A DNA stretch of 64,000 bases from Escherichia coli. GTDB lineage: Bacteria > Pseudomonadota > Gammaproteobacteria > Enterobacterales > Enterobacteriaceae. Made by a program: the position numbers and the translations under genes. The stretch is taken from NCBI RefSeq assembly GCF_041886205.1, contig NZ_CP169029.1, one strand, 5' to 3'. The notes beneath the pieces were generated by a model. The model saw only the letters and a list, made by a program, of their open reading frames with translations. It was not told where the DNA came from and did no database searches. Positions 24,561-27,977 of this stretch are shown here, piece by piece. Positions within the stretch are counted from its first letter, which is position 1. Each line of letters starts with the position of its first letter.

Positions 24561-27500
24561 TCAGAACGACCAGTTCACACCAGCCACCGCATTCCACGGG
24601 GATTCCACACCGGCACCATGGCTATACCCCATCCCGAGATGCCCGCTTAACGTACTGCTGAATGAGGCTTTAATACCTGCCTGGTATATTCCACGTCTGC
24701 CCGACAAATCATTGACAAAATTACCGTCACTATTCACTTTCACCCGATTATCATCGACAAATTCTTTGCGCAAAGCCGCCTTCAGCCAGGGTTCAATTTC
24801 TATACCGTTCCCCAGACGCATGTTGTAACTCAGCGTTGCGCCCAGTTCACGATATATACTGCGGGTATCGACTGATTTCGATTCCATGCCATTGGATAAA
24901 TGATATTCAGGGTTATCAGCGGTGAACCCCGTTAACGATGCATACGGCGTCAGGTTCCAGTTACCATCGGTAAATCGCATCCCGGTTTCAATGTGACCAC
25001 CCAGCCCGTTGCTGCGATAACTGCCGTTGGCGGCTCCACCGCTGCTCATTTTACCGGCTACGTTACTTTCAAAACGGTTCAGCTTCACGACACCGTCCAG
25101 ATAGAAACCACTTTCATGTTCCCAACTGGCATAGCCGCCCAGAGAATAACTGCCCACACAGCCATGTCCTCCGCGATCAAAACCGATATGTGAATGGGAA
25201 TAACCCATAAAAGCGCCCAGCGTGGCAATTCCTTCAGGAATATCATTACGGCTGTCGATCCCCACGGTCATTCCGGTCAGCGTCTGCTCAAACCCGGCAC
25301 CCGCATCGGTGGTGACATTATTACGGGTGTTATACGTCGCCCCCCAGACATTATTGTTGTGTGGACTCGCTTTCATTATGTTCAACCGCTCGCGAATACT
25401 GTTTAGCTCAGCATCAAATACCAACGGTAATGTTGCAGCCATATTGAGTACGGCTGCCGTAGAAGGCGTGATGCGTTTCTCCGGAACGGGTGTCGGCGTT
25501 GGATCGGGAGTCGGGTCTGGATTTGGGTTTGGGTTCGGGTTTGGGTTTGGGTTTGGGTTCGGGTTTGGGTTTGGGTTTGGGTTTGGGTTCGGGTTTGGGT
25601 TCGGGTTCGGGTTCGGGTTCGGGTTCGGATTTGGGTTCGGATTTGGGTTCGGATTTGGGTTTGGGTTTGGGTTTGGGTTTGGGTTTGGGTTGACATTATT
25701 GGTCAGGTTCCAGTTACTGTTACCGTCACTTTTCAGGACATACTCATAGGTCCCAAGATCAACGAAACCGCCAGTATTGCCCAGCGTAAACGAAGCATCC
25801 CCTCCCCCTGTTTTCACCAGCGTCATCGCGTCGTCAGACTGAGGGCTGACGCCGGTATCCTGAACAAAGATTTTAAAATTACCAGTGGCGTTGTTGTTGA
25901 CGACCAGTTGATCGCCCCGGGAGCCTGCAACGTTGGTATGCAGGTAGAAGTTACCGCTGCCGGAAAGTTCATTGGTTGTCAGAGTGTTGTAGATACCGTT
26001 AGTTGTGGCAGGCGCTGATAAATAAACATCACCGTCGTTGAGTAGCAAACTGTTTACTCTATATTCGCAGTTGCTGGTACCTGCACAGGAATTATTGCTG
26101 TTAAGCCAGACACTGCCCCGGCTGGCAGCCGTCAGGTCGGCAAGCGTCGTATCGACGCCATTTCCGATAGTTAATGTCGCGCTATCGGTAATCCGGACCG
26201 CCCCTTCAAGTTTAACTGGCGTAACATTATCCCGTGGCGTCATTAACGACAGGCTTCCTGTCGCGCCACTGACCGATGCATCCGCCAGCGTACCTGCGTA
26301 GACGATTGCCGTCCCGTCAGTGACCTGGAGATCTTCTGCCCGGGCCAGAGCCTGAAACTCATCTTTTGACCGCCCAAGGGTATATTGCCCGCCAGAGTTA
26401 ACCTTTGTGGCGGAGTCCTGACCCAGGTTTTGCATTGCACCACCCTTGCCAACCGTGGAGTCACGGGCTTCGGTACCTGCTAATACCAATAAATTACCGC
26501 CATTTTCCAGCAACACATTGGTCGCTAAATTGCCGGCAATGGAAAAGGTACCGTACTGGTGAGTACCGCTGATTTCAATACCGTTAGCCGTGCTCGTCTG
26601 GAGAGCGGCACCGCTGTTCTGGACGATATCTGTCGCTTTGCCATTATCGTTGACTGTCAGCGTACCGCCTTCATTGATCGTTGTTTTTATTGCCTCACCG
26701 TTAGCCGAAACTGTTTGTATTCCGCCGTCGTTAATCGTTGTCTCATTCGCCACACCCTCGACGATTTGTTCGCCACCAGTGAGCGCCGAGCCTGTCGCAG
26801 TGGCTTTTGTTTTGACGATCTCCCGTCCGCCCGTATTGACCTGTGTTTTGGCGGAAGTGGTGTCTGACTCCACGGTTAACACGCCGCCATTTGCCAGCAG
26901 GATATTGTTCGCCGCACCCTGCTCGATGCTGAACGCGACGCCATCAGCGCGTGTCCCTGTGACCCGCGTCGCCCTGGTGGTTGCAACCAACGCGCCCTGA
27001 CTACTCTGCTGTATCCCCGTTGCGCTGCCTTTCTCCCGCACATCGAGTGTGCCGCCATTGTTAAGTCTGGTGGTATATGCTACGGCCTCCTCGTGGACAA
27101 TCATCTTACCGCCAGCATCAACGATGGTATCTACCGCCGAGGTTTGAGCTACAACCGTCAGTTCGCCGGTATTTTCCAGCACAACATGCTCAGCCCTGCC
27201 TCCGGTAATAGTGAAGTGAGAGGACCTCTGGTATCCGTCAATATCAGTCCCCGCGCCCGTGTTGGCAACTAAAGCGCTCCCCGTGTCCAGGTAAACCCCA
27301 TGTGCGATACCGCCGGTATCGACAATCAGCGTGCCTCCGGCGCGAATATTGCTGCCAGTTGCCGTACCTCCTTTCTCAACAACCTGCTTGCTCCCGGAAG
27401 CGATATTTGTTGTGTCAGCTTTCCCGCCGCTCTTGATATTTTGCGTGCCACTGTTGATATTTGTTCCCGTAGCAATACCATGATTATAAATATTCTGTGT

Positions 27501-27977
27501 ACCGCCATTAATTATGGTATTAGTCGCGCTCCCGGCAACATCCATGGCCCCGCCGTTATCTATTCGGGTCGCATCAGCTTTAGCATTCGTTAAAACTGAC
27601 ATTGTTCCTTTATCGTTAATTATCGTCCCTGTAGAAATTCCTCCCTCACTAATTGTCTGGCTGCCACCGTTAATGACTGTATTATTAGCCTGCCCCTGAT
27701 AAGAGCCATGACCAGATACCTCTTGATGTCCACCAGTATCAATAATACTTCCATTAGAAATCCCGCCATATACCTCCTGATTGCCGTGATTGATGATATG
27801 AGCGTTATTTGTTGTACCTCGTTCATCTACTCTTTGGCTGCCGTCTACAGTCTCATCATTTACAACGCCAATAACATTAGAAGTGAAGGCCGTCATCCCA
27901 GGCGGGGCATATATCATGGCAGATATCAATAAGGAAAGTGCTGAGCGGTGAAAATAATAGCGACTGATTCTGTTCAT
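24561..27977 (-). CDS. AIDA/Ag43-type autotransporter adhesin, about 1,138 aa, apparently intact (position corresponds to the K-12 ycgI autotransporter pseudogene); contains a ~36x Asn-Pro linker
   Basis: ORF 24561..28106; start set at ATG 27977 (MNRISRYYFHRSALSLLISAMIYA signal, SD GAGGA 8 nt upstream); repetitive passenger (GxxIxxGGxQxV units); C-terminal beta-barrel ending ...VNWSF. Confidence 0.8.
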   Translation of the reverse strand: MNRISRYYFHRSALSLLISAMIYAPPGMTAFTSNVIGVVNDETVDGSQRVDERGTTNNAHIINHGNQEVYGGISNGSIIDTGGHQEVSGHGSYQGQANNTVINGGSQTISEGGISTGTIINDKGTMSVLTNAKADATRIDNGGAMDVAGSATNTIINGGTQNIYNHGIATGTNINSGTQNIKSGGKADTTNIASGSKQVVEKGGTATGSNIRAGGTLIVDTGGIAHGVYLDTGSALVANTGAGTDIDGYQRSSHFTITGGRAEHVVLENTGELTVVAQTSAVDTIVDAGGKMIVHEEAVAYTTRLNNGGTLDVREKGSATGIQQSSQGALVATTRATRVTGTRADGVAFSIEQGAANNILLANGGVLTVESDTTSAKTQVNTGGREIVKTKATATGSALTGGEQIVEGVANETTINDGGIQTVSANGEAIKTTINEGGTLTVNDNGKATDIVQNSGAALQTSTANGIEISGTHQYGTFSIAGNLATNVLLENGGNLLVLAGTEARDSTVGKGGAMQNLGQDSATKVNSGGQYTLGRSKDEFQALARAEDLQVTDGTAIVYAGTLADASVSGATGSLSLMTPRDNVTPVKLEGAVRITDSATLTIGNGVDTTLADLTAASRGSVWLNSNNSCAGTSNCEYRVNSLLLNDGDVYLSAPATTNGIYNTLTTNELSGSGNFYLHTNVAGSRGDQLVVNNNATGNFKIFVQDTGVSPQSDDAMTLVKTGGGDASFTLGNTGGFVDLGTYEYVLKSDGNSNWNLTNNVNPNPNPNPNPNPNPNPNPNPNPNPNPNPNPNPNPNPNPNPNPNPNPNPNPNPNPNPNPDPTPDPTPTPVPEKRITPSTAAVLNMAATLPLVFDAELNSIRERLNIMKASPHNNNVWGATYNTRNNVTTDAGAGFEQTLTGMTVGIDSRNDIPEGIATLGAFMGYSHSHIGFDRGGHGCVGSYSLGGYASWEHESGFYLDGVVKLNRFESNVAGKMSSGGAANGSYRSNGLGGHIETGMRFTDGNWNLTPYASLTGFTADNPEYHLSNGMESKSVDTRSIYRELGATLSYNMRLGNGIEIEPWLKAALRKEFVDDNRVKVNSDGNFVNDLSGRRGIYQAGIKASFSSTLSGHLGMGYSHGAGVESPWNAVAGVNWSF
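25489..25690. repeat. Hexanucleotide tandem repeat (GGGTTT/GGGTTC/GGATTT on plus strand, about 34 units) encoding the (NP)n linker of the autotransporter
   Basis: Read directly; in-frame 6-bp units; plus strand has G3-N3-G3-N3-G3-N3-G3 runs. Confidence 0.9.

Follow-up and report, generated by a model that had tools for sequence, protein, structure and literature searches.

In Escherichia coli K-12 MG1655, the place between ymgJ and minE is occupied by ycgI (b4521), annotated as a pseudogene of 344 bp. The same place in the E. coli sequence analysed here (64,000 nucleotides of contig NZ_CP169029.1, assembly GCF_041886205.1; hereafter, the window) contains a long open reading frame (ORF) for an autotransporter, and the question is what this gene is and how it relates to the K-12 remnant. 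The gene very probably encodes a complete type Va autotransporter of the AIDA-I type; it would be the intact ortholog of ycgI and a shortened paralog of YpjA/EhaD, ancestral at this locus and lost elsewhere by deletion.

24561-27977, minus strand: autotransporter gene adjacent to minE, 1,138 codons plus stop, uninterrupted in the ORF list and translation
27975-27990, minus strand: Shine-Dalgarno sequence GAGG (27990-27987), 9-nt spacer and ATG (27977-27975), read from the sequence

The frame is far longer than expected by chance. The ORF containing it covers 24561-28106 (minus strand; 1,181 residues counted from an upstream GTG), and the protein counted from the ATG at 27977 begins MNRISRYYF and ends AVAGVNWSF. 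The initial annotation, which left the strand unstated, had described an intact frame of 1,138 codons running from a signal peptide through a repetitive passenger to a β-barrel ending in VNWSF. Translation of the minus strand contains no internal stop, so that no premature stop was missed in the repeat region, and the domain order agrees with the Pfam and NCBIfam domains, the AlphaFold2 (AF2) model and inspection of the sequence. The ATG at 27977 corresponds to the start of K-12 YpjA (MNRTSPYY...); an alternative in-frame ATG at 27986 is without Shine-Dalgarno spacing. Near-identical coding sequences (CDSs) are annotated in other genomes, with identical boundaries in strains 6EVA and VE-T9.

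The protein is divided as follows.

27888-27977, minus strand: predicted Sec signal peptide, residues 1-30, MNRISRYYFHRSALSLLISAMIYAPPGMTA followed by FTSN, by inspection
25701-27887, minus strand: passenger, residues 31-759, β-solenoid of AIDA-type repeats (Pfam, NCBIfam, PDB, AF2, Foldseek)
25701-26057, minus strand: pertactin-like autochaperone/junction within the passenger, residues 641-759 (PF03212 Pertactin, E 6e-47)
25479-25691, minus strand: Pro-rich linker, residues 763-833, with (Asn-Pro)29 at 25518-25691 followed by DPTPDPTPTPVPE (Tandem Repeats Finder, period 6, 29.8 copies)
25374-25466, minus strand: long α-helix, residues 838-868, expected in the barrel pore (AF2; Foldseek against pre-cleavage EspP and AIDA-I transport units)
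24564-25355, minus strand: 12-strand outer-membrane β-barrel (translocator), residues 875-1138, ending VNWSF (PF03797, TIGR01414, AF2, Foldseek)

The predicted signal peptide has a basic n-region, a hydrophobic core and small residues ahead of the predicted cleavage site (between GMTA and F); residues 1-29 have predicted local distance difference test (pLDDT) values below 50 in the AF2 model. The signal peptide of the homologous YpjA is 29 residues long (PMC13101318). The passenger contains six stretches of PF16168 (AIDA; E 1e-85) and six TIGR04415 strand-loop-strand repeats. Its sequence matches in the PDB are the AidA-I family adhesin 7ko9 (Ag43 of UTI89), Ag43 and TibA (about 1e-29), and its best Foldseek matches are Ag43 (7koh/7ko9) and TibA (4q1q). 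The junction region matches P.69 pertactin (1dab, 2e-17) in the PDB sequence search. In the barrel, the autotransporter β-domain PF03797 covers residues 877-1115 (E 5.6e-45), and TIGR01414 is matched with E 5.6e-92. The barrel matches Vag8 and BrkA by sequence in the PDB and superimposes on BrkA (3qq2) in Foldseek with a TM score of 0.91 normalised to the target and a root-mean-square deviation of 2.6-3.5 Å; the C-terminal domain also matches the translocators of EspP, Hbp, AIDA-I and NalP. The AF2 model was built from an alignment of 25 sequences and has a mean pLDDT of 78.6. It consists of a short-strand solenoid (residues 33-759), a disordered stretch (764-832), a helix (838-868) and 12 long strands (875-1137). 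The signal peptide, AIDA-repeat β-helix, autochaperone, and pore helix with a 12-strand barrel and aromatic C-terminus are together, as predicted and modelled, those of a type Va autotransporter of the AIDA-I type.

Alignment of the window with K-12 divides the gene into two parts.

24561-24905, minus strand: segment equivalent to K-12 ycgI, the last 114 codons and the stop (BLAST, 95.9% identical to the K-12 remnant)
24906-28007: stretch of 3,102 bp missing in K-12 MG1655, codons 1-1024 including the start and 30 bp upstream (BLAST alignment with K-12; junction inspected at single-base level)

The description of ycgI in the initial annotation as a K-12 pseudogene agrees with this: b4521 aligns to 24561-24905 alone, and K-12, lacking 24906-28007, is not equally intact. 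The two alleles share one chromosomal slot, with both flanks collinear, and differ in that K-12 retains no more than the terminal 344 bp, without the start codon or any of codons 1-1024, while the window holds the whole gene. The locus is the same and the remnant is continuous with the 3′ end of the gene, which identifies the latter, by sequence comparison, as the intact ortholog of ycgI. One nucleotide of microhomology at the K-12 junction points to an illegitimate deletion. The remnant and the window 3′ end differ by 13 mismatches and one gap in 345 bp (4%), within a 4.4-kb minE-side alignment, remnant included, that is 99.3% identical as a whole; the remnant of IAI39 is nearer (98%) to the alleles of strains Ec-U3 and ETEC1738. 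This divergence suggests either neutral drift or a mosaic history at the ycgI spot.

The closest well-known relative is YpjA (b2647 in K-12), which is 79.6% identical to the window protein over residues 119-1138. At the nucleotide level, 87-95.5% identity to ypjA extends over 24551-28361, from about 384 bp upstream of the gene to 10 bp past its stop, with the 3′ two-thirds of the gene at 94.6-95.5% and the 5′ end at 87%. The window protein is 388 residues shorter because two passenger blocks of YpjA are absent, and its N-terminal part aligns to YpjA repeat units at 39-47%. YcgV is only 25% identical. K-12 ypjA lies elsewhere, at 2.778 Mb beside pinH, ypjB, ypjC and ileY, and many genomes carry both the minE-locus gene and ypjA, seen as two match places per record; since the loci differ and many genomes hold both, the window gene is a paralog of ypjA rather than ypjA itself. 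Close paralogy accounts for the name given by the Prokaryotic Genome Annotation Pipeline (PGAP), 'ypjA', adhesin-like autotransporter YpjA/EhaD; no YpjA/EhaD model came up when the protein was scanned with the NCBIfam hidden Markov models. The gene is already annotated publicly under the name of its paralog and is an ordinary member of a well-known autotransporter family.

The paralog also determines how carriers can be counted. When 5,426 complete E. coli genomes were probed with 201 bp spanning the K-12 deletion junction, 4,597 (about 85%) gave a contiguous match. A ycgI-specific probe, spanning the point at which ypjA is 642 bp longer, did so in 405 genomes (7.5%), in 353 of them at 99% identity or more; this count agrees with the 440 records that match the passenger at 95% identity or more. 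Roughly 420 genomes have neither the intact-type nor the K-12-type state. A whole-gene megablast returned 2,473 genomes at 80% gene coverage or more, which were rejected as carriers: most of these matches, at about 91-93% identity, are ypjA elsewhere in the genome, and the six-fold overcount arises because the search matched the paralog. A probe at the 5′ junction was discarded as non-discriminating, since the approximately 384 bp upstream are duplicated at the ypjA locus as well. The window allele itself, at 99% identity or more, is found in about eight records only. The initial annotation had called an intact copy strain-specific. The term is too loose: the intact form is a minority allele, with a frequency of about 7.5-8% among complete E. 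coli genomes, and is not unique to one strain.

Carriers include O55:H7 DEC5B, pig enterotoxigenic strains and human isolates. Nine minE-locus genes of 1,120-1,154 residues are annotated as intact (6EVA, VE-T9, Ec-U3, ETEC1738, DEC5B, RIVM_C037791, GMF065, JCH767 and ETEC4079). In the carrier EC571, the gene is disrupted by IS66 and frameshifted, and in A1_136, an IS1 transposase is listed under the autotransporter match. The strains closest to the window over 20 kb are wlxctx60 and 6EVA (99.9%), members of a small clade with 99-99.9% identity over this length. The K-12-type remnant is present in K-12, BL21, O111:NM, CFT073 and IAI39, all with an identical junction, and has also been described in UTI89 (PMC6206680). 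Among the roughly 420 genomes in neither state is F1 E4, a 5.5-Mb cattle isolate presumed to be O157-like, which has a different truncation, a barrel remnant of 747 bp abutting unrelated DNA. As the sequence of this remnant shows no difference from the O55:H7 DEC5B allele (100% identity), the truncation is a recent, independent loss. The rearranged DNA beside it includes ompT and IS66. The full-length region is present in 493/89 (sorbitol-fermenting O157), LSU61 and PV15-279, a presence that does not imply intactness; in PV15-279, two features are labelled 'ypjA' and the region is longer by about 1.3 kb. These sequences appear to place the loss of the F1 E4 type in the stepwise lineage leading from O55:H7 to O157:H7.

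Comparison of the intact alleles by the Nei-Gojobori method (NG86) gives ratios of non-synonymous to synonymous substitution rates (dN/dS) of 0.09-0.14, with dS up to 0.147; the window and Ec-U3 alleles, for example, differ by 69 synonymous and 32 non-synonymous changes. These ratios argue for a maintained, functional gene. In Escherichia albertii NBRC 107761, an autotransporter ORF likewise runs into minE-minD-minC, and the barrel together with the minE-minC stretch is 84% identical to the window at the nucleotide level. As E. albertii has an autotransporter in this slot, its presence next to minE predates the E. coli/E. albertii split and the deletion is derived. The scan of species representatives gave two loci, the one in E. 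albertii and one in a contig of a metagenome-assembled genome (MAG); it requires exact peptide words, and other Escherichia species may have escaped it. The MAG contig, JAIJJM010000485.1 ('Collinsella sp.', 2,482 bp), encodes the first 805 residues of the autotransporter with 97% identity and, on this evidence, is almost certainly E. coli contamination. Direct evidence thus supports a history in which a minE-adjacent autotransporter is ancestral in Escherichia, one old illegitimate deletion of 3,102 bp produced the K-12-type remnant that now predominates, and intact alleles under purifying selection persist in the minority of genomes, with further lineages having lost the gene independently.

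The window gene could instead have been rebuilt or re-imported recently into a K-12-like deleted backbone, with ypjA as the donor in gene conversion or an intact allele of another lineage as the donor in recombination; we consider this unlikely. The dS between the window gene and K-12 ypjA is 0.148, no larger than that of the most divergent pair of ycgI alleles (0.147), a hint that the duplication is recent or that gene conversion continues. Re-import would also fit the higher identity to ypjA in the 3′ two-thirds than at the 5′ end, the 4% divergence of the K-12 remnant within an otherwise closely matching minE side and the scatter of intact and deleted alleles over lineages. Yet the window allele has the architecture of all minE-locus alleles, in which the two additional passenger blocks of YpjA are missing and the linker is pure Asn-Pro; at a dS of about 0.09 to the other sampled intact alleles, there is no obvious recent donor; and its closest relatives form a small clade of nearly identical sequences over 20 kb. 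An ancestral gene with derived deletions remains the better account. Within it, a further reading, which we consider unlikely, is that the locus is a long-lived presence/absence polymorphism and not a case of simple decay, in which an ancient null allele coexists with intact alleles under strong purifying selection while fresh, independent knock-outs arise, as between O55:H7 and O157:H7. If so, selection on the surface protein would be antagonistic or frequency-dependent, the protein being, for example, an immune or phage target on the one hand and of benefit in colonisation on the other.

The Asn-Pro linker varies in length. The 29 units of the window are written as AACCCA (18), AACCCG (7), AATCCG (3) and AATCCA (1), and five other alleles have 31, 37, 20, 28 and 20 units, all in frame. 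Subject match lengths range from 3,315 to 3,465 bp and differ from the query by multiples of 6, with the single exception of LHM10-1 (NZ_CP037903.1, 2765522-2768967), whose match is 29 bp longer than the query and not a multiple of 3; the cause may be a genuine frameshift within the repeat or a fault of assembly. When the repeat slips, the length of the protein changes but its frame does not, and the repeat is therefore not an on/off switch. It is conceivable, though unlikely, that slippage in the (Asn-Pro)n stalk (about 12 to 37 units) serves to tune how far the adhesin projects through O-antigen or capsule.

The region upstream of the gene belongs to the segment shared with ypjA, and a terminator-like hairpin lies at the other end.

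27978-28361, minus strand: upstream region duplicated with the ypjA locus at about 87% nucleotide identity, holding a 39-residue ORF and ymgJ (approximately 28122-28307) (BLAST against the K-12 ypjA region, 6EVA annotation)
24521-24546, minus strand: intrinsic-terminator-like hairpin CTGCGC-TTCG-GCGCAG followed by the T-run TTTTCGTTT, directly 3′ of the stop (sequence and RNAfold, consensus-type evidence)

The gene is flanked by minE on one side and by the 39-residue ORF, ymgJ, ymgI, ymgG and ymgD on the other. Weak evidence of a promoter is given by hexamers resembling promoter elements (28368-28340 and 28242-28215), and the upstream region is AT-rich (39-42% GC). A genomic SELEX promoter table (minor sigma factors, stationary-phase section) has peaks in or near ypjA; these are not tied to the duplicated upstream region and were left unused. 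The 39-residue ORF (28042-28161, minus strand), just upstream of the autotransporter, has a copy of 95.8% nucleotide identity upstream of K-12 ypjA and is labelled a hypothetical protein by PGAP. Its role could be that of a small protein, or of a leader or regulatory element conserved in both paralogs.

Although its frame is intact, the gene could be effectively silent or decaying, a pseudogene not yet broken that contributes nothing to the cell surface. Such a state would be in keeping with the deletion in about 85% of genomes, the independent truncations and insertions, the broken neighbouring autotransporter gene ycgH of the same strain (below) and the AT content upstream, which would be typical of H-NS-silenced adhesin genes; ypjA is also reported to be cryptic in K-12 (Roux et al. 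2005). We nevertheless regard it as improbable. The dN/dS values, at a dS of up to 0.147, are not those of neutral decay, nine of the carrier loci inspected have an intact gene, and the hypervariable Asn-Pro repeat is in frame in the five other alleles (20-37 units); silence in the laboratory would not exclude a function in the host.

A functional protein would be expected to follow the type Va route. The 30-residue Sec signal peptide would take it to the periplasm, and the BAM complex would insert the C-terminal 12-strand barrel into the outer membrane. The passenger would then be threaded outward, C-terminus first, with folding nucleated by the pertactin-like autochaperone, giving a displayed β-helix of about 730 residues of AIDA-type repeats, with (Asn-Pro)29 as its flexible stalk. 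Its role would be in surface adhesion or biofilm formation, as reported for YpjA/EhaD. YpjA, YfaL and YcgV take part in the initial stage of adhesion and in biofilm formation (PMC3796261), and YpjA/EhaD enhances biofilm in O157:H7 (PMC12547504). As passengers of autotransporters are functionally diverse (PMC9289746) and the function here is assigned by homology, the passenger might instead be a protease, an esterase or a toxin. This is very improbable: the Pfam and NCBIfam scans found no catalytic domain in the passenger, which consists of AIDA repeats and autochaperone throughout; structurally, the passenger is nearest to Ag43 and TibA, both self-associating adhesins; and adhesion and biofilm are what its closest homolog, YpjA/EhaD, has been linked to.

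Several points weigh against reading the locus as an intact, ancestral adhesin gene. Secretion, surface display and adhesion are ascribed to the protein by analogy with its family, the signal peptide is a prediction judged by eye, and the promoter support is weak, consisting of consensus hexamers. The genome counts are those of megablast probes and not of a curated pan-genome. YpjA-type genes are reportedly cryptic under laboratory conditions. The N-terminal 118 residues and two internal stretches are less YpjA-like, and binding specificity may therefore differ; loss in most lineages means that the gene is dispensable. A literature search on intact ycgI found no paper, the mentions of ycgI being confined to a pseudogene (K-12, UTI89) or a poorly modelled barrel, and the hits of a protein database search were for the most part fragments or bore generic names ('AIDA repeat-containing protein'), with no specific published name among them.

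The second autotransporter gene, ycgH, had been described in the initial annotation as frameshifted in the window. It is indeed disrupted, but the lesion is an internal deletion and not a simple point frameshift.

29324-31442, minus strand: ycgH pseudogene with a 545-bp out-of-frame internal deletion, junction at 30801/30802 (two ORFs in different frames; alignment to Ec-U3 ycgH)

The gene is split into ORFs of 226 and 498 residues in different frames, the 3′ ORF retaining the autochaperone and barrel domains. Measured against the intact 2,664-bp ycgH of Ec-U3, the deletion has 2 bp of microhomology at its junction. The same form in 6EVA carries the PGAP flag 'frameshifted'. K-12 ycgH is broken differently, with 16 gap positions and codon 507 as its first stop. 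The states of ycgI and ycgH are found in all four combinations.

ycgI intact, ycgH intact: Ec-U3, ETEC1738, RIVM_C037791, GMF065, JCH767
ycgI intact, ycgH broken: the window, 6EVA, VE-T9, DEC5B
ycgI broken, ycgH intact: IAI39
ycgI broken, ycgH broken: K-12

Elsewhere in the window, bluF/ycgF is interrupted after about codon 136 by an insertion sequence of 1,057 bp (35884-36940) with a DDE transposase ORF (35916-36884; PF13737, PF01609) and a 9-bp target duplication, TTTTACAGG. The size and the duplication fit IS903, and the insertion may disable BluF-BluR control of ycgZ-ymgA-ariR. Between cvrA and dadX (approximately 5056-8292), about 3.2 kb are missing from K-12, where an IS1414 fragment alone stands. 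This region holds a leucine-rich-repeat-like gene, a single CDS of 1,440 bp (about 479 residues) in VE-T9 and similar in DEC5B, which in the window is split by an IS3-family element of about 1.3 kb (orfA 6588-6914, orfB 6911-7801). At approximately 40900-43923, the e14 prophage is absent at icd, which is uninterrupted, and about 1.5 kb from icd to rluE (42421-43923) are not found in K-12; in VE-T9, this region is annotated with an STM2901-family protein and a DUF1493 protein. At 57157-57162, K-12 ymfA and ycfZ (about 1.3 kb, potD to cobB) are absent in the window, as they are in VE-T9.

The current understanding of autotransporters is unchanged by these findings, whose value is mainly practical. 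They explain the K-12 pseudogene ycgI as what a 3.1-kb deletion has left of a YpjA-like adhesin gene. Strains like that of the window carry an extra, apparently functional surface protein that is missing from K-12-based models and that could matter for work on adhesion, biofilm and surface display. With two loci under the one symbol 'ypjA', BLAST-based adhesin typing can conflate paralogs that are 87-95% identical in nucleotide sequence.

Compared with Ag43, AIDA-I and TibA, the window protein has the same AIDA-type/TIGR04415 β-helical passenger and type Va route, and these proteins are its best sequence and structure matches in the PDB; identity is, however, only about 20-25%. The NCBIfam cut-offs for Ag43 and AIDA-I are not reached (auto_Ag43, 177.7 versus 1200 bits; auto_AIDA-I, 156.3 versus 1200 bits), and the YfaL score is far below its cut-off too. 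No heptosyltransferase gene of the Aah/TibC type adjoins the autotransporter among its neighbours, despite six TIGR04415 repeats of the target type, and glycosylation in the manner of AIDA-I or TibA is therefore not indicated. The minE-adjacent autotransporter of E. albertii (P0009-like, 1,475 residues) shares the synteny abutting minE and has a barrel 79% identical in amino acid sequence. It differs in its long passenger, which aligns collinearly with YpjA (52% identity over 1,476 columns) and shows an identity of only about 33% to the N-terminal part of the window protein. YpjA/EhaD itself shares with the window protein the start and signal peptide, as well as the order of AIDA repeats, pertactin-like region, Pro-rich linker and barrel. 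The two differ in location, ypjA lying beside ileY and the CP4-57 prophage and the window gene between minE and ymgJ, and in sequence, where the N-terminal 120 residues or so and a block at approximately residues 184-283 have diverged (dN 0.13-0.16). The linker of YpjA is a mixture of K/N/D-P with 19 dipeptides, whereas that of the minE-locus proteins is a pure (NP)20-37.

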